Shown piece by piece: positions 7,693 to 57,846 of a DNA stretch of 64,000 nucleotides. Within the stretch, counting starts at the first letter, position 1. Each line of letters begins with the position of its first letter. A model generated the notes under the pieces. That model saw nothing but the letters and a program-made list of their open reading frames with translations, was not told the origin of the DNA and did no database searches. Both the position numbers and the translations under genes were made by a program. The stretch is from Bacteroidales bacterium (lineage in GTDB: Bacteria; Bacteroidota; Bacteroidia; Bacteroidales; P3): NCBI GenBank assembly GCA_031260565.1, contig JAISLH010000015.1:452-64451 (forward strand). Reading direction: 5' to 3'.

Positions 7693-7757
7693 TAATTTTC
7701 TAAAACAAAGCTTTAGAAAATTAAAACGCCGTTTCATTTTTACGAAACGGCGTTTTA
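7693..7757. repeat. Degenerate relative of the family-A element (two small hairpins)
   Basis: aattttctaaaacaaagctttagaaaatt plus aaaacgccgtttcatttttacgaaacggcgtttt share the aattttctaaa and aaacgcc/ggcgttt motifs with family A. Confidence 0.6.
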
Positions 7758-10367: not shown

Positions 10368-10403
10368 GAAAAAATATCCGACAAATGGTTTTGCTAAAAT
10401 AAA

Positions 10404-10497
10404 ATGCCACCTTAATTTTCTAAAGCGGCGTTTCGTGACGCTAAAGTGGCGTTTCAGCGTCACGAAACGCCGCTTTAGGAAAAGCAAGCAGAGTTTG
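10404..10497. repeat. Family-A palindromic element, copy 2 (perfect 23-bp stem)
   Basis: The left stem is ctaaagcggcgtttcgtgacgct (10420-10442), the loop is aaagtggcgtttc (10443-10455) and the right stem is the exact reverse complement (10456-10478). Confidence 0.95.
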
Positions 10498-15254: not shown

Positions 15255-15485
15255 AATATTATAGTTTCCAAGTTAAACACTATAACTTTCGAGTTAAACA
15301 CTATAACTTTCGAGTTAAACACTATAACTTTCAAGCCAAACACTATAACTTTCAAGTTAAACACTGTAACTTTCAAGTTAAACACTATAACTTTCAAGCC
15401 AAACACTATAACTTTCAAGTTAAACACTATAACTTTCAAGTTAAACACTATAACTTTCAAGTTAAACACTATAACTTTCAAGCCA
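15255..15485. repeat. Tandem array, 21-bp unit AACACTATAACTTTCAAGTTA, 10 full units plus 1 degenerate leading unit
   Basis: Units start at 15276 and recur every 21 nt to 15485. Variants are gagtta, aagcca and ctgtaac. The leading unit 15255-15275 matches 16/21. Confidence 0.95.
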
Positions 15486-15524: not shown

Positions 15525-16199
15525 ATGCAAAGTGACTGGATTAAGTACAGAGAAGCAGATTTATTGCTGCAGGCAGGAGCTAATGAAAAGTATTTTATTT
15601 CGCTTGGTTCGCAATTTCCTTCAGCTGAGTTACAACGTTTTAGGGCAGCAGTAACAGCATTTAGGACGGCGTTCGCAAAAACATCAGACAAGGGCACATC
15701 AACGAGTGCTGATGTAAAAGCTAAAAATGATGCAAAAAAAGCGTTAATCGCTATAATGCGAGAGTTTTACAACAGGTATGTTATCGGCAGTCCGACAATG
15801 ACAAACGAGCAGCGGGAAACGTATGAATACCCTATCCACGACACCGAGCCAACACCTGTGCCTGTGCCAAGAATTGCTCCAGATATGGATGTTGATTTTT
15901 CGCAAAGAGGCTCTCATTTGGTGTATTTTGGCGAGGAGAATAGCAAACACAAAATCGTTCGCGGGCTGCCGAAAGGTGCTCATGGTGTGGAAATTTATCG
16001 CCTCATTTCGCACGACTCATTGCCAATTATGCCTGAAATTGAGACTATGGAATTTGTTGGGTTGGCTTCCAAAAGCCCGAAAGAATTCTTATACAAGAGC
16101 AGTGAAACCGGTTCCAGAGTGTATTATGTGGTGAGATATTTCAATGATAGAGGGGAGTTTAGCTTGTGGTCTAAGGTGGTGATGGCGATTGTGAATTAA
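15525..16199 (+). CDS. Hypothetical protein (224 aa) whose C-terminal half looks FN3/Ig-like
   Basis: The ORF is clean and non-repetitive. A Pro-rich hinge EPTPVPVPRIAP is followed by a beta-rich segment ending VYYVVRYFNDRGEFSLWSKVV, typical of FN3 C-terminal strands. Confidence 0.55.
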   Translation: MQSDWIKYREADLLLQAGANEKYFISLGSQFPSAELQRFRAAVTAFRTAFAKTSDKGTSTSADVKAKNDAKKALIAIMREFYNRYVIGSPTMTNEQRETYEYPIHDTEPTPVPVPRIAPDMDVDFSQRGSHLVYFGEENSKHKIVRGLPKGAHGVEIYRLISHDSLPIMPEIETMEFVGLASKSPKEFLYKSSETGSRVYYVVRYFNDRGEFSLWSKVVMAIVN

Positions 16200-21438: not shown

Positions 21439-21858
21439 TTAGCTTTGTAATCCGTGAATATCAACATTCGCTTCTACAAGCGTAACATCGTTTTTAAGAA
21501 ATGCACTGAACTCAGATGAAGGACGGAAGGTGCAATGAATTTCATCCTCCCCATCTACGCTAACTTGGGCGAGAGTAGTTTTGTTAGCGGACTTAAGAAA
21601 CGGCACAAGCGTTCCCAAAGCTCCAATCTCAACGGAATATCCCGATGCAATCTTTTCTTTAATCACATCAGTCAGGGCAAAAACAGCCGCAGATACGTCT
21701 GCTCTTGTCAATCCTTCCCGCTCTGTTATTTCTTTCACAAGGACATCAAATGAGATTCTCCCTGCATTAAACCGTTGCTTGCGGTATCTTGTACCCGGAT
21801 TAGCACCTACCGTCTGATTTTTCATTACCTTTACGAAAGGAAATTCTAATTTTTTCAT
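21439..21858 (-). CDS. Bacteroidota-type HU-like DNA-binding protein
   Basis: It is 139 aa. LTRADVSAAVFALTDVIKEKIASGYSVEIGALGTL resembles HU/IHF-fold proteins of the Bacteroidales HU_2 type. Its stop lies 3 nt before the RNB ORF start. Confidence 0.65.
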   Translation of the reverse strand: MKKLEFPFVKVMKNQTVGANPGTRYRKQRFNAGRISFDVLVKEITEREGLTRADVSAAVFALTDVIKEKIASGYSVEIGALGTLVPFLKSANKTTLAQVSVDGEDEIHCTFRPSSEFSAFLKNDVTLVEANVDIHGLQS

Positions 21859-21958: not shown

Positions 21959-22060
21959 CTTGTTGAAAAAAAAGTGGCTACTTTTGCCCAAGAAGTAGCC
22001 ATTTTATTTAAAAAAAGTGGCTACTTTTTACCCAAAAGTAGCCACTTTTTTTTCAACAAG
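21959..22060. repeat. Nested palindrome with perfect 27-bp inverted arms and an internal oppositely oriented pair of the same core
   Basis: cttgttgaaaaaaaagtggctactttt (21959-21985) is the exact reverse complement of 22034-22060. Inner copies aagtagcca (21992-22000) and tggctactt (22018-22026) allow alternative pairings. Confidence 0.9.
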
Positions 22061-26837: not shown

Positions 26838-26915
26838 CAAACGCTGTTTTAATTTTCTAAAGTGGCGTTTCGTGACGCTAAAGCGGCGTTTCAGGAAAAT
26901 GAAACGCCACTTTAA
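26838..26915. repeat. Family-A palindromic element, copy 3 (box order swapped)
   Basis: In ttctaaagtggcgtttcgtgacgctaaagcggcgtttcaggaaaatgaaacgccactttaa, the T-type box occupies the outer positions and the C-type box the centre. Confidence 0.85.
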
Positions 26916-32835: not shown

Positions 32836-32929
32836 ATGCCACTTCATTTTTCTAAAGCGGCGTTTCGTGACGCTGAAACGCCACTTTAGCGTCACGAAAC
32901 GCCGCTTTAGGAAAATGAGGCAGAGTTTC
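32836..32929. repeat. Family-A palindromic element, copy 4 (central box inverted)
   Basis: It has the same 23-bp stems as copies 2 and 6 (32852-32874 / 32888-32910). Its loop reads gaaacgccacttt, the reverse complement of the loop in copies 2 and 6. Confidence 0.95.
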
Positions 32930-33003
32930 ATTTCAATCAAGCAAAAAAAAGAAAAGGACAGATTTGCACCTGCCCTTTTCTAATTCAAGCCTTAACGGTT
33001 TAT

Positions 33004-36000
33004 TTATTTATTGACAATCAACTTTTGTGTTCTGTTGATGTCATTGTTCAGTATTCTAACGTAGTAAGTGCCTGCTGCATAATGCTCAACATCTATTGCC
33101 AATATCGTCTGGTTTGCTTTGATGTCAGTCTTTGCAATTACCTTGCCCGTAAGGTCGGTGATTGTAATCTGTGCATCGTCTCTCAAACCTGCTATTGACA
33201 AGGTTGCGGTATGCGTTGCAGGATTTGGATAGATGTTTATTGCTACTGCATCAATATCAACGTCAGACAGACCATTGCCATCACAAGTAGTAAATTGCTT
33301 CTCTACTCCATAATAAGCAACACTTCCAACCTTAGCATAAGCTACGTAGAAGTAGTTATCGCCATAATTGAAGCCAGTAGCAGTTGCCGTCATAGTCGTT
33401 CCAACAACAGGCATATTTGACGCAGCAATCGTTCCGTTATCAACCGTTAAGCCGGCAGTAGTACCATAAATGAAGCCAAATTCTGTTGCCATTGGTGTGC
33501 CTACGTTGGTTATCGTTCCTGCGAAATAAACTACAACGTCACTAACGCAAGTTACCGTAGCCGTATCAGTTACAACAACAGGATTCATGCCCTGCATTAG
33601 GAAGGTTAATTCACTACCATAAGTTGTGCCGCTGGCTGTTGTGGCATAAGCTTTGAAAGTATAGCTTGTGTTCGGTGTTAAAGCGGTAAGGTTAGCGGTT
33701 ATATCCGTTGTACCTGTGGCTGCTATAGTTTGCCATGAAGATGCGGTGCTTACTTTATATTCAAAACCTCTTGCTGTTATGGTTTCTGTCCCTGCGGCTG
33801 TTGTGCCGTTGAGTGTGGCTGTCGTATTAGTTATCTCTGTTGCGGCAAGAGTTGTTACCGTTGGAGGTGTATGCTGTAAAGTTGTAAAGGTTTGCTCACT
33901 GCCGTAAGTTGTACCGCTGGCTGTGGTAGCAGAAGCTCTGAAAGTATAGCTTGTGTTCGGTGTTAGAGCAGTAAGGTTGGCGGTTATAGTTGTTGTACCT
34001 GTAGCGGTAATAGTTTGCCATGAAGAAGCAGTGCTTACTTTATATTGAAAGCCTCTTGCTGTTATGGTTTCTGTCCCTGCGGCTGTTGTGCCGTTGAGTG
34101 TGGCTGTCGTATTAGTTATTGATGTTGCTGCAAGAGTTGTTACCGTTGGAGGGGTATGCTGCAAAGTTGTAAAGGTTTGCTCGCTGCCGTAAGTTGCACC
34201 GCTGGCTGTTGTGGCAGAAGCTCTAAAAGTATAGCTTGTGTTTGGTGTTAAAGAAGTAAGAGCGGCGGTTATATTCGTCGTGCCTGTGGCGGTAATAGTT
34301 TGCCATGAAGATGCGGTGCTTACTTTGTATTGAAAGCCTCTTGCTGTTATGGTTTGCGTGCCTGCGGTTGTTGTACCGTTGAGGGTAGCTGTCGTATTAG
34401 TTATTGCTGTTGTGGCAAGGGTTGTTACCGTTGGAGGGGTATGCGTTGTGCTAAAGGTTAATTCGCTGCCGTAAGTTGTGCCGCTGGCTGTTGTGGCAGA
34501 AGCTCTAAAAGTATAGCTTGTGTTCGGTGTTAAAGCAGTAAGGTTAGCGGTTATTGTCGTTGTGCCTGTGGCGGTAATAGTTTGCCATGAAGATGCGGTG
34601 CTTACTTTGTATTGAAAGCCTCTTGCTGTTATGGTTTGTGTGCCTGCGGCTGTTGTGCCGTTGAGTGTGGCTGTTGTATTAGTTATTGTTGAGGCGGCAA
34701 GAGTTGTTATTACTGGAGGTGTATGTTGCGTGGTAAAGGTTAATTCGCTGCCATAAGTTGTTCCGCTGGCTGTGGTAGCAGAAGCTCTGAAAGTATAGCT
34801 TGTGTTCGGGGTTAAAGCAGTAAGGTTAGCGGTTATTGTCGTTGTGCCTGTGGCTGCTATAGTTTGCCATGAAGAGGCGGTGCTTACTTTGTATTGAAAA
34901 CCTCTTGCTGTTATGGTTTGTGTGCCTGCGGTTGTTGTACCGTTGAGTGTGGCTGTTGTTTGGGTTATTGATGTCGCTGCAAGGGTTGTTACCGTTGGAG
35001 GGGTAATGAATTGTGTGATGGCTATATCATCTAAATACATATTGTAGCCATACTGAGAAAGTGCCTTAAAGACTATGTATTTTGTACCACTTAAAGCTGA
35101 AGGTATGGTATATGAAATGGAATCCCAACCTGCTGTTCCCATATTTGAAACGAAGCCTAACAATGTTCCGCCAACCGTATCAGGTGTTGAATTAACATAA
35201 ACATAAACTCCTTCGTTAGCGGATGAATAACTTCCTGTATATTTGTAAAACCAGAAAGACAGAAGCATATTTCCAGATAAGCTTATTTGAGGAGAAGCCA
35301 TTGTTGTCCATGCTCCTACTTGATTCTGGCTGTCATAGCTTGCATATTTAGCCATATTACTACCACCGTGAGGGGCACAAGTAGGAGTGACTCCCGTTGT
35401 TACTATTTGCCAATAAGTATTTGCAGCTGCTCCTGACGAAGCTAATGTCCAGCAACCAAAACCATTTTCAAAGCCCTCTGTATATGGAAAAATTGTTACC
35501 GAAGAGCAAAGAGTTGTAAAGGATTGCTCTTCTCCATAATAAGTGCTTCCAGCTACCGTTGCATAGGCTCTGAAAGTATAAGTGGTACTTGGTGTTAGAG
35601 CAGTGAGGTTAGCAGTTATGGTTGTTGTTCCTGTGGCTGCAATAGTTTGCCATGAAGATGCAGTGCTTGCTTTGTATTGAAAACCTCTTGCCGTTATTGT
35701 TTGGGTTGAAGAAATAGCTCCGTTAAGTGTTGCTGTGTTTGCGGTAACAGATGTTGCGGCATAAGTTACAACAGCAGTAGTTCCCAATGCACTTTGGATA
35801 CCAGCAAGGGCGTTAATTTTACCATAACCCCATGTGTTATTAGGAACAGAAGAGGTATAGCTATCGGTTATTGATGTTGTTTGTAATATTGTTTTGACTT
35901 GTGAAGGAGTTAATGAAGGATTTGCCTGCAACCACAAAGCTATAACCCCTGCAACAAAAGGGCTTGACATAGATGTTCCCGAAGCAGTACCATAGTACCA

Positions 36001-37743: not shown

Positions 37744-39213
37744 TTAATCTCTTGACCACGTTGCCCCGTCCTTGCCGTCCTTTATGGTTATGCCGAGTTC
37801 GGAAAGAGTATCCCGCAGCTGGTCACTGGTCTTCCAGTCCTTTGCTGTGCGGGCTTGCGTCCGTAAATCCAATATTAAATTCACCAATCCTTCAACAAGC
37901 TGTTGCGAAGTGTCGTTTGCCTCCTCTGTCAGTCCAAGAATGCTATGTAAAATGGCTGTAAAGTCTTCCGTAAAGTGCAGAAGGTCATCAGCCGTTATTG
38001 TTTGCGTTGTCTCCAAAAGAAGATTTATCTGACGCACTGCCTCAAACAGATGTGCTATAACGACAGGTGTATTGAAGTCATCGTTCATTGCCTCAACCAC
38101 TTTGTCCATAAGGTCTAAGTCAATGGTCGTTTTGTCAGAAGGCTTTATATGTTTCAGGTTTTTGAAAGCCTCAAACAACTTCTTCAAACCTCGTTCTGCC
38201 GCCTGCAATGCCTCGTTTGAAAAGTCCAAAGTAGAGCGATAATGGGCTTGAAGAATGAAAAAGCGTATCGTCATCGGCGAATAAGCCTGTTGAAGCAATG
38301 CGTGAGAGCCGCTAAATATCTCTTGCAGAGTTATGAAGTTGCCAAGACTTTTGCCCATCTTCTTTCCGTCAATGGTAATCATATTATTATGTATCCAATA
38401 CTTTGCAGGCTCGCAATGAAAGGCACACACAGATTGAGCAATTTCGCTTTCGTGATGAGGGAAAAGCAAATCTAACCCTCCTCCATGAATGTCAAATTGC
38501 TCTCCAAGGTACTTTCGGCTCATTGCAGTACATTCTAAATGCCAGCCGGGAAAGCCTATACTCCAAGGAGATGCCCATCGCATAATATGTTCCGGCGAAG
38601 CCTTTTTCCACAACGCAAAATCGGTAGCGTTATGCTTTTCCTGCTGCCCGTCAAGCTCACGTGTATTGGCAACCATATCCTCAATGACCCGATTGGAAAG
38701 CACTCCGTATTTATTGGTATCAGATTGGTATTTAACAACATCAAAATACACAGAGCCGTTACTTTGATAGGCGTAACCGCTATCCAAAATCGCTTGAACA
38801 ATTTCAATTTGCTCAATGATATGACCTGATGCTGTGGGCTGTATGCTTGGTCTTAGCACATTCAAAGCATCCATTGCGTCAAGGTAACGTTTGGTATAAT
38901 ATTGGGCAACTTCCATTGGCTCTAATTGTTCCAAGCGTGCTTTCTTTGCTATTTTATCTTCGCCCTCGTCAGCGTCATTTTCCAAGTGCCCAACGTCTGT
39001 TATATTCCTCACATATCGCACTTTGTAGTCCAAAAACCTCAGATAACGAAAGATAATATCAAACGTTATCGCCGGTCTTGCGTGTCCCAAATGAGCATCA
39101 CCATAAACCGTTGGTCCGCAGACGTACATTCCGACATAGCCTGCCGTCAATGGCTCAAATATTTCTTTCTTCCGAGAGAGTGTATTGTAGATTATAAGGT
39201 TTTTTTCTGCCAT
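37744..39213 (-). CDS. cysS: Cysteine--tRNA ligase
   Basis: It has HLGHARP (HIGH) and KMGKSLGN (KMSKS) motifs, at 489 aa. Confidence 0.92.
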
Positions 39214-39234
39214 AAGAATCTATTTTTCAGGTTG

Positions 39235-39242
39235 CAAATATA
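39235..39242 (-). promoter_or_regulatory. -7 promoter box (TATATTTG)
   Basis: TAnnTTTG lies 22 nt upstream of the ATG at 39213. Confidence 0.45.
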
Positions 39243-39279
39243 CAACTTTTTTTCAAATCCACAAAGGCAACCCCTAATT

Positions 39280-39670
39280 CCGAACGCCAAATTAGCAAAA
39301 TCCTCTCCCAAAACGCTATTCTACTTTCTCCAAACGCCACTTTAACTTACTCAAACGCTGTTTTAATTTAGCGAAACAGTGTTTTATTTTAGCGAAACGC
39401 TGCTTTATTTTCGTTAGATGTACATCTAAAATAAATAAGATGTACATCAAAATAAAATAAGATGTACATCAAAATAAAATAAGACGTACATCAAAATAAA
39501 ATAAGACGTACATCAAAATAAAATAAGATGTACATCTAATGAAAATAAGATGTACATCAAATAAATTTTAAGTGGCGTTTCAACAAAATAAAACACTGTT
39601 TCGCTAAATTAAAACAGCGATTGAGTAAGTTAAAGTGGCGTTTGGTTATGTTAAAGTGGTGTTTGTGGAA
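39280..39670. repeat. Composite palindromic element B1: 61-bp inverted arms plus 7 x 22-bp phased GA[T/C]GTACATC array
   Basis: Arms 39330-39390 and 39585-39645 are reverse complements at 60/61. Palindrome copies start at 39417, 39439, 39461, 39483, 39505, 39527 and 39549. Extra degenerate boxes lie outside the arms. Confidence 0.95.
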
Positions 39671-39891
39671 AATAGAATGATATTTGGCAGCAACCAAATG
39701 AAGATTTAATTGATTAAGGCTTGAATGCGTTTTAATGAAATCAAATTATTGGTTATCAGTGTATATAGTTGCAGTATTGATACAAAGTTTTCACCCGTCT
39801 AAATAATATTTTATGGCGGCGAAGTAAAATTTTTTGATAAAAAATGCTTTATTTCAAATTTTTATATTATTTTTGCAGGTTAATTAGATAT

Positions 39892-41160
39892 ATGTTGCGT
39901 ATGAGAAAGTTAGTTATAATCTTAGTCATTTGTGCTTTTGCAAGCAGTTTTGTTACTGCTCAAAAGCCTAAAAAAGCCACTGCGGACGTTAAACCTATCG
40001 TTACCGAAGTGCAATTACCACCTCGTTGTGCGGATTGTTTGTTTGCCGTTAATTTAGAGTTAGATACGGCTTTCGGACCGACCGAACCATTGCAAGGTTT
40101 CGGCTACATCAATGAAATAAAACGTGATAAGACAGCCAAGAATGTCTTTGAACAGGAGCATAATACGGTGTGGTATAAGGTGGAAATCCCTTATAGCGGC
40201 AAGCTGTTGGTGGATATAGCCCCCAAAAGTCAGACAGATGATTACGATTTCTTGATTTACAAATACACAGACCGCTATTTCTGTAACCGCGTTGAGCGTA
40301 ATCGCGTGCTGCCTGTGCGTTCGGTGATGTCTTCCATTGACCCTGCGGTGTCGGGTAAGACAGGCTTGCGGCTAAATGCAACGGACATCAATCTGGACAA
40401 GTCTTCTACCACCGCTTATGCAAAGTATATTGAGGTGAAAGAGGGTGAGAGTTATATGATTGTTGTTGATAATCTGAACGATGGAGGTTTGGGACACACA
40501 ATACGGGCAGAGGTTTGGACGGAATCAACGCCGTTTCAAATCTATCCAATAGACAGCATAAGCAAACAGAGAACGACAGCCGATATTGTTGTCATTGAGA
40601 ACGAGACTCAGCGTATTGCTTTGGAGAAAACAGATGTTGGTGCTCAGAAATTAAAACTTATGCCGAACAAAACTTACACCATCAACCTTACAAAGAATGG
40701 TTACTTCAACTATACAAACACTATCAGCTACGATAAGGCAAAAACCGACAGTGCTTTGACTGCTTATTTGGTGGAGATAAAGATAGGCTCTAATCTTCCA
40801 ATCAGTGGAGACCTGTATTATGACACAGACGAGGAGGGAAAGACAATAATACTGCCGGAATCGTTGCCTGTCTTAGACCGAGTGGTGGAAATAATGCGTG
40901 AATATCCTAAAATACACGTTGAAATCATAGGAAGAATAGCCACCGAAGGGCTTAACGTAAGAACAGATAACGACCGCTCAAAAGCAAGAGCCGAAGCCAT
41001 AAAAGCATATCTTGTCAGCAAGGGAGTATCCGAGCCAAACATCACGACAAGAGGCTCATCTATCAAAGAATTAGAAGCTCAGATTAAATCACAGAACGAA
41101 AATCGTAGCGGGCAACTGCTAAATCCTCAAAGCGAAATAAAAATCAAATCATTTAAATAA
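39892..41160 (+). CDS. OmpA-family (peptidoglycan-associated) lipoprotein or outer-membrane protein
   Basis: It has a signal peptide after Met17 (MLRMRKLVIILVICAFASSFVTAQ). The C-terminus has an OmpA_C-like motif (EIIGRIATEG...RSKARAEAIKAYLVSKG). The start choice is uncertain (39892 or 39901). Confidence 0.7.
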   Translation: MLRMRKLVIILVICAFASSFVTAQKPKKATADVKPIVTEVQLPPRCADCLFAVNLELDTAFGPTEPLQGFGYINEIKRDKTAKNVFEQEHNTVWYKVEIPYSGKLLVDIAPKSQTDDYDFLIYKYTDRYFCNRVERNRVLPVRSVMSSIDPAVSGKTGLRLNATDINLDKSSTTAYAKYIEVKEGESYMIVVDNLNDGGLGHTIRAEVWTESTPFQIYPIDSISKQRTTADIVVIENETQRIALEKTDVGAQKLKLMPNKTYTINLTKNGYFNYTNTISYDKAKTDSALTAYLVEIKIGSNLPISGDLYYDTDEEGKTIILPESLPVLDRVVEIMREYPKIHVEIIGRIATEGLNVRTDNDRSKARAEAIKAYLVSKGVSEPNITTRGSSIKELEAQIKSQNENRSGQLLNPQSEIKIKSFK

Positions 41161-44520: not shown

Positions 44521-44802
44521 GGAAAATTATTTTTAATAACTGCGGTTTTTGCACTTTCATTCAAAAAATATTTTTCAAGGATTGCCACATTCTTTCAAAT
44601 ATGTTATGTGTCTTTCTGTATTCCTGCTTTTTTATCCAATAATCTTCACGCAATTTTCTACTTTCTTTTATTACTTTAGGTTGAGGACAACTTAAGGAGT
44701 CTTTTTGCCGTATTTAATGATAGCAAAGGTACATCTTTTTTTTTGAAACAACAAAATAAATCATCATTTTGCCCTCCTCTACCCACATTCTAATTTAGCA
44801 TT

Positions 44803-44898
44803 ATGCCACCTTAATTTTCTAATGCGGCGTTTCGTTACGATGAAACGCATATTTAGCGACACGAAACGCCGCTTTAGGAAAATGATGCAGAGTTTGGT
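44803..44898. repeat. Family-A palindromic element, copy 5 (degenerate)
   Basis: The sequence is atgccaccttaattttctaatgcggcgtttcgttacgatgaaacgcatatttagcgacacgaaacgccgctttaggaaaatgatgcagagtttgg. Confidence 0.85.
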
Positions 44899-44948
44899 TA
44901 AAATAAAACAAAGAAATAGCGAAATGATGCTAAGCAACAAACTTTTAT

Positions 44949-51370: not shown

Positions 51371-51465
51371 GTGCCACCTTAATTTTCTAAAGCGGCGTTT
51401 CGTGACGCTAAAGTGGCGTTTCAGCGTCACGAAACGCCGCTTTAGGAAAATGAAGCAGAGCTTGA
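51371..51465. repeat. Family-A palindromic element, copy 6 (perfect 23-bp stem)
   Basis: The stems are 51387-51409 and 51423-51445 and the loop is aaagtggcgtttc (51410-51422). The core is identical to copy 2. Confidence 0.95.
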
Positions 51466-57538: not shown

Positions 57539-57846
57539 AACGAAGCAGTGTTTTAATTCACTCAAGCAGTGTTTTAAATCACTCAAACAGCGTTTTAAAT
57601 TACGGAAGCAGTGTTTAAACTTCTTGAAACAGCGTTTGAGATTCATAAGATGTACATCTTTTTTTCATAAGATGTACATCTTATTTTCGTTTGATGTACA
57701 TCTTATTTTATTTTGATGTACATCTTATTAAATTTAGATGTACATCTTATTAAGTTTTGATATATACCAAACTAAAATAAAACACTGCTTCCGTAAATTT
57801 AAACACTGTTTCAGTAACTTAAAACACTGCTTCGTTAAGTTAAAAC
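57539..57846. repeat. Composite palindromic element B2: imperfect inverted arms of AAGCAGTGTTTTAA-type boxes plus 5 x 22-bp phased GATGTACATC array
   Basis: Palindrome copies start at 57649, 57671, 57693, 57715 and 57737. The first 18 nt of the left arm (aacgaagcagtgttttaa) are the exact reverse complement of 57819-57836. The left arm carries one extra box. Confidence 0.95.

Follow-up and report, generated by a model that had tools for sequence, protein, structure and literature searches.

Composite element B1, at positions 39311-39664 of the window (the whole 64,000-nucleotide stretch of DNA analysed here), is best read as a BIME-1/RIB-like mosaic repeat, one copy of a dispersed, non-coding family on a Bacteroidales chromosome. 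B1 is a lattice of phased boxes, related copies are dispersed within and among genomes, the palindromic box and its phase are conserved, and arrays of this type are linked to genes for HU-HIG proteins. On balance, B1 appears to be an orphan array of putative HU-HIG sites carried in a dispersed REP/BIME-like mosaic, and not an origin, a centromere or junk DNA.

B1 is about 370 bp in size and has no ORF inside it. The whole element forms a single continuous lattice of 17 boxes, the centres of which are separated by five steps of 21 bp, six of 22 bp and again five of 21 bp, and the phase of the box centres is kept across both junctions between arm and array. The central array (39417-39558) consists of seven 10-bp palindromes with A-rich spacers between them: GATGTACATC starts at 39417, 39439, 39461, 39527 and 39549, and units 4 and 5, which start at 39483 and 39505, have the variant GACGTACATC. 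The step from one palindrome to the next is exactly 22 bp every time. Seven palindromes in 22-bp phase had been reported in the initial annotation, and both a pattern scan and TRF (39416-39565, period 22, 6.9 copies, 92% matches, score 242) found them again, including the variant shared by units 4 and 5. Because spacers 2-5 are identical (AAAATAAAATAA), part of the array is the product of a recent tandem expansion.

The left arm (39311-39406, plus strand) is composed of five 21-bp units with box centres exactly 21 bp apart, each unit carrying a dyad-like box of the form AAAC..(G/C)TTT; the five boxes are AAACGCTATTCT, AAACGCCACTTT, AAACGCTGTTTT, AAACAGTGTTTT and AAACGCTGCTTT. The right arm (39569-39664, minus strand) also has five 21-bp units, inverted with respect to those of the left arm, and is placed 21 bp from the last palindrome, in phase. 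The best-conserved parts of the two arms are 39330-39390 (plus strand) and 39585-39645 (minus strand), and recomputation agreed with the earlier description of near-perfect 61-bp inverted arms, giving reverse-complementarity at 60 of the 61 positions. In an independent short-read assembly of SRR14710919, each arm is interrupted by an assembly break (39359 and 39616), so that the unit count of seven is that of the MAG contig alone. Exact-protein look-ups with CysS and OmpA returned only short Logan contigs, all from SRR14710919, that end inside the B1 arms.

B1 is not one of a kind: it has a second copy in the window and belongs to a dispersed family, and BIME-1/RIB of E. coli and BrickBuilt of P. 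gingivalis are precedents for its structure. The second composite element, B2 (57543-57832), lies after a flavin-reductase gene and is of the same design as B1, with five steps of 21 bp, five of 22 bp and three of 21 bp. Its first arm (57543-57638) has five 21-bp units of the AAGCAGTGTTTT type, its array (57649-57772) has five copies of GATGTACATC and one decayed copy, GATATATACC, at 22-bp steps, and its second arm (57779-57832) has three inverted arm units; its A-rich spacer is oriented opposite to that of B1. With up to one mismatch allowed, the palindrome has 12 matches in the 64-kb window, all of them within these two arrays, compared with 1.4 expected, and a count of 12 was not attained in any of 100 shuffles. 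For the arm box, AAACRSYGYTTTA, 43 matches were counted in the window where 2.25 would be expected (19-fold), and the box is by this count a highly repeated, extragenic unit of the imperfect palindromic type (20-40 bp) that is characteristic of REP and BIME elements. The repeat family to which it belongs occupies about 10 intergenic sites in the window. A representative REP-like hairpin element of roughly 110 bp, at 10400-10490, has the boxes TAAAGCGGCGTTT and TAAAGTGGCGTTT of this family; further copies lie at about 1760-1875, 26839-26914, 32840-32930, 44800-44900 and 51380-51460, and a shorter related pair of boxes at 7722-7757. Neither a GTAG/CGTC tag on the arm units nor, among the window ORFs scanned, a PF01797-type protein (RAYT, Y1 transposase) was found.

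The window is a housekeeping segment of the chromosome (dnaG, pfk, tsaD, nqr and cysS), and gene annotation agrees with the divergent setting originally given for B1, between the minus-strand cysS gene and the plus-strand genes for OmpA-family, GWxTD and GT2 proteins. Promoters were searched for with the pattern TAnnTTTG, a sigma-70 promoter scan being uninformative for Bacteroidota. The -7 box of cysS, which is of the Bacteroidota type (TATATTTG, 39235-39242, minus strand), is the sole strict match within 39200-39860 and lies outside B1, 69 bp from its left end. A -7-type box of the OmpA-family gene (TATTTTTG, 39868-39875, plus strand) is also outside, about 200 bp from the right end, and the same search found no strict -7 box inside B1. 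The OmpA-family gene is 419/422 aa long according to NCBI and JGI, compared with 438 aa for the longest ORF, and its true start is likely to be the ATG at 39892 or 39901. Since both -7 boxes are outside the element, a classical repressor acting on cysS and ompA at B1 is unlikely. The statement that the element has no coding capacity and no transposase nearby is true for the ORFs scanned: a Pfam scan of the 33 larger ORFs of the window, which did not include several at 24.3-26.8 kb and 55.7-62.3 kb, found no transposase, integrase or RAYT gene. An empty-site test at 80 cysS loci of metagenome relatives gave a best identity of 73%, and none of these loci had an ompA/GWxTD neighbour or GATGTACATC.

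No described element with the sequence of B1 was found in Rfam, in the plasmid and phage collections or in the literature, and the impression that B1 matched no recognized element was thus borne out. Rfam searches at gathering and permissive thresholds gave only a tRNA at gathering score, the hits within 39000-40000 being far below threshold; B1 had no blastn match among the PLSDB plasmids or the INPHARED phages; an exact-pattern scan of viral contigs gave 0 matches; and in the literature searched the exact palindrome occurred only in primers and FNR-consensus oligonucleotides. CRISPR-like arrays, Mpi invertase sites (ARACGTWCGT) and Tn7/Mu-type repeats were also considered, and were rejected on box size and on the lack of flanking inversions and of ends or genes.

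A genome scan for the phased palindrome found at least 89 stretches, 86 of them in about 26 Bacteroidota-type genomes. Exactly four units are present in 53 of 92 arrays, and odd numbers (5, 7) are common. All of the Bacteroidota arrays listed are intergenic; the 64 arrays with both neighbours known lie between tandem minus-strand genes (23), convergent genes (19), tandem plus-strand genes (14) and divergent genes (8). The MAG STF2_138, which is related to the source of the window, has at least 22 array loci. Of the 187 units that remain when the two required by the search are set aside, 135 match the palindrome perfectly (mismatch rate 0.045 per site), compared with 0.36 differences per site among the spacers within one array, which is about eight-fold above the palindrome. 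Outside the four-MAG clade, the information content is 1.73 bits per palindrome position, compared with 0.2-0.35 in the flanks. Comparison of one locus that is orthologous among three MAG species shows conservation of the boxes with their GCTAA prefix, and change in the spacer cores and in the number of arm units. This pattern, with box and phase conserved while the spacers vary, lends comparative support to the earlier idea that the array may bind protein on one face of the DNA, as does the linkage to HU-HIG genes described below.

The initial annotation had further likened the 22-bp phasing to that of iteron-type replication origins and partition centromeres, and in plasmid iterons and partition centromeres (R6K, pPS10, sopC, parC) the protein sites do lie about two turns apart, on one DNA face. 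However, such arrays occur at a single locus per replicon, adjoin rep or par genes and usually lack palindromic symmetry, and B1 has none of these traits. Two copies are present in 64 kb of housekeeping chromosome, a single related MAG has the large number of loci given above, and copies also occur between convergent genes. Furthermore, rep, par and dnaA are not adjacent, a single weak DnaA-like box stands in place of a DnaA-box cluster, and the plasmid and phage collections and viral contigs contain no match. An iteron-type origin or a partition centromere is thus extremely improbable at B1.

Dispersal of this kind could also be that of a selfish or neutral minisatellite within a MITE, like BrickBuilt of Porphyromonas gingivalis, spread by some transposase or recombinase that recognizes the palindromes or the arms; it would have no host role, and the HU-HIG genes would be a preferred landing site or the original source of the captured array. 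B1 is short, non-coding and multicopy, as expected of a MITE, and the members of the family are scattered over strictly intergenic sites, whatever the orientation of the neighbouring genes. Array copies in one genome have spacer patterns in common, which indicates descent from a common copy, the unit number is variable, with recent expansion in B1, the number of arm units differs between species, and BrickBuilt is built alike, with a strain-variable copy number (PMC4596501). The ends of B1 fit such an origin less well: its inverted arms are near-perfect complements, but they consist of internally repetitive 21-bp units that fade outward, with no sharp end. With the ends thus undefined, only chance-level 5-6-nt matches were seen in the search for a target-site duplication; an IS5-like TIR was not found in B1 or B2, nor was a partner transposase among the window ORFs scanned. 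Moreover, the 10-bp box, the phase and the four copies are kept across Bacteroidota orders with unrelated spacers and flanks, three species still have arrays at orthologous sites, and the HU-HIG-side arrays have no arms in the genomes from which one to three arrays were retrieved, whereas an insertion preference predicts otherwise. We therefore regard a MITE without a host role as a rather doubtful explanation.

The linkage to HU-HIG genes is close. An HMM search of 636 kb of array-bearing loci found 10 HU-HIG (PF18291/TIGR01201) genes, every one of them within 165 bp of an array (21-165 bp), and 492 kb of control loci contained none in the same search. The genes beside arrays are also recognized by Pfam, and an eleventh array-linked HU-HIG gene, from Phocaeicola coprophilus (an isolate), is truncated where the locus ends. 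Flavobacterium sp. XGLA_31 (L037, 1630-2013) is another cultivable carrier of a short HU-HIG gene. One of the ten (L090) belongs to STF2_138, the MAG with the most dispersed copies. At two HU-HIG loci (L036 and L046), the array lies 18-23 bp past the stop codon and not upstream, so that "operator" is not the whole story. A further point against this reading is that the position of the array relative to the -7 box differs among HU-HIG loci. In a protein-first sample, four phased boxes (22-23 bp) are present at -55 to -165 in six of eight homologues of the L052 protein, the box being GAT(G/A)TA(C/T)ATC in five of these and a variant in the sixth, and a chain score of at least 3 was reached at five of the eight loci compared with 18 of 3000 control windows. 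The remaining two homologue loci have no array, and one of them has an IS inserted 128 bp upstream. In a more distant sample of HU-HIG genes from PLSDB, the chain score was reached at four of 13 loci, plus one recognized by eye. Other HU-HIG paralogues have other phased palindromes (GACTGTACAGTC, GGACGTACGTCC, GGAGTTAACTCC and TTTCAC-N4-GTGAAA). Gene adjacency and this co-variation of box and protein point to HU-HIG as the probable binder. B1 and B2 are phased arrays of the same class (10-14-bp boxes at 21-23-bp steps), and their box is identical to the HU-HIG-side box. Their neighbours are cysS, ompA, flavin reductase and an unannotated ORF; since an HU-HIG gene lies beside neither of them, B1 and B2 are orphan copies of the HU-HIG-linked array, with seven and five to six boxes, respectively.

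The window's only HU-HIG gene (21439-21858, minus strand, 139 aa; HMM E = 3e-12) scores 57.5 bits against PF18291 (cut-off 26.2) and 47.8 bits against TIGR01201, which is below that model's cut-off. Four near-palindromic boxes (AAAAGTGGCTACTTTT) lie upstream of it at 21971-22050, in alternating orientation and at 21-22-bp steps, with the two halves of a short inverted repeat (CCGACTTGTTGAAAA / TTTTCAACAAGTTGG) on either side. The box of this gene, AAGTGGCTACTT, differs from GATGTACATC; the gene is not the cognate of the GATGTACATC box, and the logic of gene plus array is the same. A half-box likeness between the REP-like boxes (AAAGTGGCGTTT) and the boxes of this gene (AAAGTGGCTACTTT) was also seen, and is too slight to support a conclusion. 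Within the 64-kb window there is no HU-HIG gene that has a GATGTACATC array, and none of the eight L052 homologues looked up comes from sample SRR14710919. The short HU-HIG protein P0031 was modelled with confidence (pLDDT 91) as an HU/IHF fold to which a basic beta-hairpin is added at the N-terminus. Two points tell against HU-HIG as a specific binder: the predicted arm region is acidic in the HU-HIG subclade concerned, and Burroughs et al. (PMC5499826), in the only dedicated analysis of the family, considered HU-HIG proteins unlikely to be sequence-specific factors, without a conserved neighbourhood. The literature searched on HU-HIG, TIGR01201, HU-family repeats and Bacteroidetes REP/RAYT contained no paper linking the family to repeat arrays.

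The palindromes might instead be the sites of a classical dimeric factor, for example of the Crp/Fnr type (TTGAT-N4-ATCAA), that controls the HU-HIG genes and the cysS and ompA promoters. Crp/Fnr regulators are common in Bacteroidota, and the arrays upstream of several HU-HIG genes are TTGATGTACATCAA or TTGATATATATCAA, which are identical to FNR consensus oligonucleotides, TTGAT-N4-ATCAA being the FNR consensus of E. coli. The flanks, however, are TAAGAT / CTAAGAT and not TTGAT in B1, B2 and the copies of the Bacteroidales MAGs, and tandem rows of four to seven sites with a two-turn spacing, some of them between convergent genes, are not a Crp/Fnr layout. Each HU-HIG paralogue has a box of its own, and a second, co-diversifying family of regulators would be needed; the promoters flanking B1 are also 69 and about 200 bp outside the element. 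Control by such a factor is unlikely.

At several HU-HIG loci, the array is just downstream of the -7 box and would be transcribed, as expected if it were an RNA or single-strand element, such as a long hairpin or cruciform that acts as a bidirectional terminator or insulator, an mRNA stabilizer, or a structured ncRNA with pairing palindromes. The folding check proposed for the arms gave a very strong fold (39300-39675 as single-strand DNA, -105 kcal/mol, z = -18.6), and the central array folded as RNA has z = -11.3. The arms have three terminator-like hairpins, formed by adjacent units and followed by T runs, compared with 0.2 expected, and 19 of the 64 arrays lie between convergent genes. 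Against this, Rfam gives no match, a strict -7 box is missing inside B1, the spacers that would form the loops are free of constraint, and arrays often have an odd number of boxes. The arm hairpins also point inward and would stop transcription from entering the array, and loopless 10-14-bp palindromes at a fixed two-turn spacing suit a DNA-bound dimer and not a hairpin. We thus find a role as RNA or single-strand DNA improbable.

A perfect, loopless palindrome is characteristic of a site where a dimer with two-fold symmetry binds duplex DNA, which supports the reading of B1 as an array of HU-HIG dimer sites; duplex DNA is presumably the target. One HU-HIG homodimer would occupy each palindrome, and the two-turn spacing of the boxes would place the dimers on one DNA face, where they would build a compact, bent nucleoprotein stretch. 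Beside a short (about 126-131 aa) HU-HIG / HU_rel gene, an array, usually of four boxes in or next to the promoter, would serve autoregulation. B1 and B2 would be copies of such a site array that spread round the genome inside a REP/BIME-like element, and the array of B1 would have grown recently from about four to seven units. In the cysS/ompA spacer, B1 may act as a docking and titration platform, and may form a structural or topological barrier between the divergent promoters, but would not be their operator.

A wider proposal can be offered with some reserve. HU-HIG proteins may be sequence-specific, array-binding nucleoid proteins, each paralogue having its own short palindrome in four copies, two turns apart, beside its gene, and the arrays may have been amplified repeatedly into dispersed lattice elements (B1 and B2, elements with four boxes in several Bacteroidales MAGs, and BrickBuilt as a possible further case) that would serve as phylum-wide docking platforms shaping chromosome structure and local transcription. 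Few DNA-binding families of the Bacteroidota, the main human gut genera included, have expanded as much or evolve as fast as HU-HIG / HU_rel, which have so far been "enigmatic", with no target, partner or function established. A conserved cis-partner would give them a concrete DNA target, with a box that changes by paralogue. If true, the proposal would account for intergenic repeats that break short-read assemblies of Bacteroidales, and may offer a functional handle on BrickBuilt of P. gingivalis. The B1 locus would turn from an "unknown exotic element" into an orphan copy of a widespread, recognizable protein-docking array.

Several known systems resemble B1 in part. In the pneumococcal BOX elements (boxA-boxB(n)-boxC), pairing terminal modules surround variable tandem units; they are intergenic and can affect the expression of neighbouring genes. 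Like B1, they are modular, dispersed and intergenic, with a variable number of internal units, but the units are 45 bp long and are not phased palindromes, and the sequence is unrelated to that of B1. To our knowledge, there is no gene for a cognate binding protein of BOX.

The BrickBuilt MITE of P. gingivalis (Klein et al. 2015, PMC4596501) is, like B1, a strictly intergenic element of the Bacteroidales with a 22-23-nt dyad-symmetric minisatellite of variable copy number. Its 23-nt unit, AGACCATAGTATCCTCTCATATG, contains GAGAnnATAnTATnnTCTC; this unit core is absent from the window, and BrickBuilt has no sequence similarity to B1. The leader and tail of BrickBuilt are long and non-repetitive, and its TIR is IS5-like, whereas B1 has arms of 21-bp units and neither a TIR nor an internal -7 box. 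The 84-nt BrickBuilt_14 lies upstream of PGN_0872, annotated as "DNA-binding protein (PF00216)", an arrangement with the same logic as the arrays beside HU-HIG genes, although its authors drew no link to an HU-like protein (PMC4596501).

In REPtrons, a RAYT gene is flanked by its own REPs (PMC3333891), and these resemble the present arrays in that a dispersed palindromic repeat has a copy beside the gene of the protein presumed to act on it. RAYT, however, is an HUH/Y1 nuclease able to move REPs, whereas HU-HIG is without a catalytic domain and can thus explain binding, but not spread. In E. coli, according to the statement in PMC3333891 that cites Boccard & Prentki 1993, BIME-1 (RIB/RIP) has an IHF site in the L linker between inverted REPs. 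B1 has this architecture, with a central binder suggested by the linkage of arrays to HU-HIG genes: both are dispersed, extragenic, non-coding mosaics with many copies per chromosome and no adjacent mobility gene, and both have inverted arms of palindromic units round a central site for a protein of the HU/IHF superfamily, which in B1 is putative. In contrast to BIME-1, in which the centre is one asymmetric IHF site, the centre of B1-type elements is made of four to seven phased perfect palindromes, and the lattice continues into the arms as rows of 21-bp units, with no GTAG tag and no known RAYT partner. The putative binder of B1 also differs, in that it would be an HU-HIG homodimer, specific to Bacteroidota and encoded by a gene that has the same array beside it.

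B1, the composite element in the spacer between cysS and an ompA-family gene, is more regular than the initial annotation described. That annotation had reported seven palindromes at exact 22-bp steps, and this was borne out: GATGTACATC starts at 39417, 39439, 39461, 39527 and 39549, the variant GACGTACATC starts at 39483 and 39505, every palindrome-to-palindrome step is 22 bp, and TRF returned a 22-bp unit in 6.9 copies with 92% matches. The 61-bp inverted arms (39330-39390 and 39585-39645, reverse-complementary at 60/61 positions) and the two units with a T-to-C change, which are the GACGTACATC units, stand likewise. Furthermore, each arm consists of five units of 21 bp, every one with an AAAC..TTT box, and the box centres remain in register across both arm/array junctions (five steps of 21 bp, six of 22 bp and five of 21 bp), forming a lattice of 17 boxes from 39311 to 39664. 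With up to one mismatch allowed, the palindrome has 12 matches in the window, all within two arrays, compared with 1.4 expected, and 0/100 shuffles gave 12. Spacers 2-5 are identical and the two T-to-C units adjoin each other, which marks part of the array as a recent tandem expansion. In a computed fold the single strand forms a single long hairpin (-105 kcal/mol, z = -18.6), and adjacent arm units form terminator-like hairpins that face inward. An assembly of short reads from the same sample breaks within both arms; since its contigs reach into both, B1 is real, and the count of seven units is that of the MAG contig itself.

B2 (57543-57832) has the same design, with five arm units, five perfect palindromes, one decayed palindrome and three inverted arm units (box steps of 21 bp five times, 22 bp five times and 21 bp three times). 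Window-wide, the arm box AAACRSYGYTTTA is found 43 times, compared with 2.25 expected, and most copies lie in hairpin elements of roughly 110 bp at about seven intergenic sites besides B1 and B2. These REP-like elements (1760-1875, 10400-10490, 26839-26914, 32840-32930, 44800-44900 and 51380-51460, plus 7722-7757) have a 22-bp stem (TAAAGCGGCGTTTCGTGACGCT / AGCGTCACGAAACGCCGCTTTA) and are found in every gene context at a density of about one per 8 kb. The 13-nt unit in their loop reads AAAGTGGCGTTTC at 10442 and is inverted (GAAACGCCACTTT) at 32876, as though recombination between the stem arms had flipped it. A third kind of phased dyad lattice in the window consists of ten tandem 21-bp units (CAAGTTAAACACTATAACTTT) at 15269-15482, each with the dyad AAGTTA-N7-TAACTT, directly 5' of an ORF (15525-16199) with no Pfam match. 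The five tandem 285-bp repeats at 33602-35005 (88% matches) are coding, in the gene of a 1563-aa S8-peptidase/fn3 T9SS protein, and have no relation to B1.

A search of one genome per species for exact GATGTACATC-N12-GATGTACATC matches yielded at least 89 stretches. Among the matches listed, three (Brenneria, Geotalea and an actinomycete coding repeat) are probably chance hits, and the remainder belong to about 26 Bacteroidota-type genomes, including several Bacteroidales MAGs, Phocaeicola coprophilus, Prevotella, Porphyromonas, Ancylomarina, three Flavobacterium isolates and one Cytophagales MAG. Exactly four units are present in 53/92 of the listed arrays; those of Bacteroidota are all intergenic and occupy all gene-orientation contexts, and 19/64 lie between convergent genes, which is a poor fit with a simple promoter operator. 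The exact-pattern scan found no array in viral contigs, blastn found no match to B1 in PLSDB plasmids or INPHARED phages, and no Rfam family matched B1.

Box and 22-bp step persist across lineages whose spacers and flanks are unrelated. Leaving out the two perfect boxes per array demanded by the search pattern, 135/187 boxes are perfect (0.045 mismatches per site), and spacers within an array differ at 0.36 per site. Three species share an orthologous locus at which the boxes are preserved, the spacer cores are shuffled and the number of arm units differs. The MAG STF2_138 has at least 22 array loci, of which 21 aligned copies share a core of TTGCTAA and box repeated four times, with semi-conserved spacers, 21-bp units on either side and no sharp ends. 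In an uncultured Bacteroides MAG (L016:2731-2960), GATGTACATC units pass in unbroken phase into 22-bp units with another palindrome, CCGTACGG, so that two box types share one lattice. Arrays of Flavobacterium sp. XGLA_31 (L024:2855-2996 and L080:6246-6365) mix AAAAGATATATATGTTTT and AAAAGATGTACATCTTTT units, and the flavobacterial palindrome is extended to 18 bp.

When array neighbours were annotated in genomes with one to three arrays among the matches listed, the recurrent neighbour was HU-HIG (PF18291; NCBIfam TIGR01201 HU_rel), an HU-like DNA-binding protein family of Bacteroidota. An HMM built from these neighbour proteins detected 10 HU-HIG genes in 636 kb of array loci and none in 492 kb of control loci. 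All ten lie 21-165 bp from an array. The array is upstream in eight (44-172 bp) and 18-23 bp past the stop codon in two; for a gene at a random position in its 8-kb block, the chance of being so near is about 0.1, giving by our estimate about 1e-10 for 10/10. An eleventh case is found in the cultured Phocaeicola coprophilus An818, where an ORF 41 bp past the array, cut by the block end, reads MAKYRLCKKKNRLNADKDGLWYAEP and resembles the N-terminus of the L038 HU-HIG. One of the ten genes (L090) belongs to STF2_138, in which dispersed copies are most numerous, and a second species (L074) has the same layout. Arrays and an HU-HIG gene were also seen on contigs (L039, L046, L066 and L089) of a MAG labelled 'Anaerolineales bacterium UBA5796', which suggests a Bacteroidota origin (mis-binning) or horizontal transfer.

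Starting instead from homologues of one HU-HIG protein (L052) and looking up their contigs, we found four boxes in 22-23-bp steps at -55 to -165 for six of eight distinct proteins, five of the GAT(G/A)TA(C/T)ATC type (often TTGATGTACATCAA) and one a variant, AGACTTATGTCT. By an objective chain score, 5/8 of these loci reached 3 or more, versus 18/3000 control windows. For a more distant sample, 13 HU-HIG genes that tblastn located in PLSDB records, the figures are 4/13 versus 7/1500, and visual inspection adds a fifth locus with four boxes (L177). The HU-HIG gene of the window itself (21439-21858, minus strand) also reaches this score. Many of these PLSDB records from Parabacteroides, Bacteroides and Phocaeicola (L172-L184, OY7257xx-OY7260xx) contain rpsL, dnaB or pflA and are typed non-mobilizable; they resemble pieces of chromosome entered as plasmids. 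Several of their HU genes share the neighbourhood DUF4248 / HU / 'smalltalk' / amidase. At L196:210-1373 the place where relatives have a four-box array, 128 bp upstream of the HU-HIG gene, is taken by an inserted IS (DUF4372 plus DDE_Tnp_1), and a second contig with the same gene (L197) contains just 126 bp of upstream sequence.

Boxes of other HU-HIG genes are GACTGTACAGTC, GGACGTACGTCC, GGAGTTAACTCC, TTTCAC-N4-GTGAAA and AGTTACTGAG, with AAGTGGCTACTT in the window. The box thus changes with the paralogue, and on these sequence comparisons the simplest account would be that each HU-HIG protein binds its own box. Three of the longer HU-HIG genes, paralogues from Phocaeicola massiliensis (L182, L183 and L184; 203-231 aa), are preceded by a conserved GATTAAGTACTTTTGTAC promoter segment, then four 22-bp units whose 12-bp palindrome differs from gene to gene, then a conserved CCCTTAGCC stem. 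Upstream of the window HU-HIG gene are four AAAAGTGGCTACTTTT boxes (21971-22050) with a short inverted repeat on their flanks; the half-box AAAGTGGC is common to these boxes and the REP-like and arm boxes AAAGTGGCGTTT, which may or may not be meaningful. The AlphaFold model of one short HU-HIG protein (P0031) has a confident HU/IHF fold plus an extra basic N-terminal beta-hairpin, and structural comparison placed it closest to classical HU and to 4FMR, the HU-HIG structure from B. vulgatus. The only dedicated study called HU-HIG enigmatic, described no conserved neighbourhood and argued against sequence-specific binding (PMC5499826); our literature search found no published link between HU-HIG and repeat arrays.

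Loop-less perfect palindromes are the sites that a two-fold symmetric dimer reads on duplex DNA, and 21-23-bp steps place successive dimers on one helical face. From these two features we propose that short HU-HIG homodimers bind cooperatively to the boxes and introduce in-phase bends into the DNA. An array in or just after a promoter would provide autoregulation of the HU-HIG gene; at several HU-HIG loci a -7 box (TAATATTG or TACTTTTG) lies 7-12 bp before the first box. We lean towards HU-HIG as the predicted binder of the B1 boxes, but the window has no cognate HU-HIG gene, two arrays are 3' of their gene, and in its extended form the box is similar to an FNR site.

B1 and B2 are orphan arrays set in REP-like arms, and the local effect at B1 is likely to be protein titration plus a structural or topological barrier, not direct repression. 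The initial annotation had also considered a repressor array, and this operator reading is not supported: the -7 boxes of cysS (TATATTTG, 39235-39242) and the ompA-family gene (TATTTTTG, 39868-39875) are both outside B1, and arrays also occur between convergent genes. The longest ORF of the latter gene (438 aa, against NCBI and JGI calls of 419/422 aa; region 39844-39901) probably starts too early, and the -7 box falls inside it. The window is ordinary chromosome, containing dnaG, pfk, tsaD, aroK, nqrA, cysS (protein MDR0789333.1) and T9SS cargo genes. The suggestion of proteins arrayed on one DNA face is supported, and its origin and centromere versions do not agree with the copy number, the neighbouring genes or the context. 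Of the 33 larger window ORFs scanned, a set that omits several at 24.3-26.8 kb and 55.7-62.3 kb, none encodes a transposase, integrase or RAYT, and within that scope the earlier remark that no transposase is nearby holds. Neither element ends nor target duplications were found for B1 or B2, and HU-HIG has no catalytic domain.

The family and anatomy of B1 as described here are close to certain. B1 is a dispersed, BIME-1/RIB-like mosaic repeat whose core is, judging from gene neighbourhoods, most probably an orphan array of putative HU-HIG binding sites. The closest described element in its order is BrickBuilt of P. gingivalis, which has about 19 copies, predicted long stem-loops and a 23-nt dyad-containing minisatellite whose copy number varies (PMC4596501). 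Membership of B1 was rejected, as it has another unit, no long unique leader or tail and no IS5-like TIR. The shortest copy, BrickBuilt_14 (84 nt, without leader or tail), lies upstream of PGN_0872, annotated as a 'DNA-binding protein (PF00216)', a placement left undiscussed by its authors (PMC4596501) and one that fits the logic of an array beside an HU-like gene. The closest precedent for the function proposed for B1 is BIME-1/RIB of E. coli, in which an IHF site lies between inverted REPs (PMC3333891).
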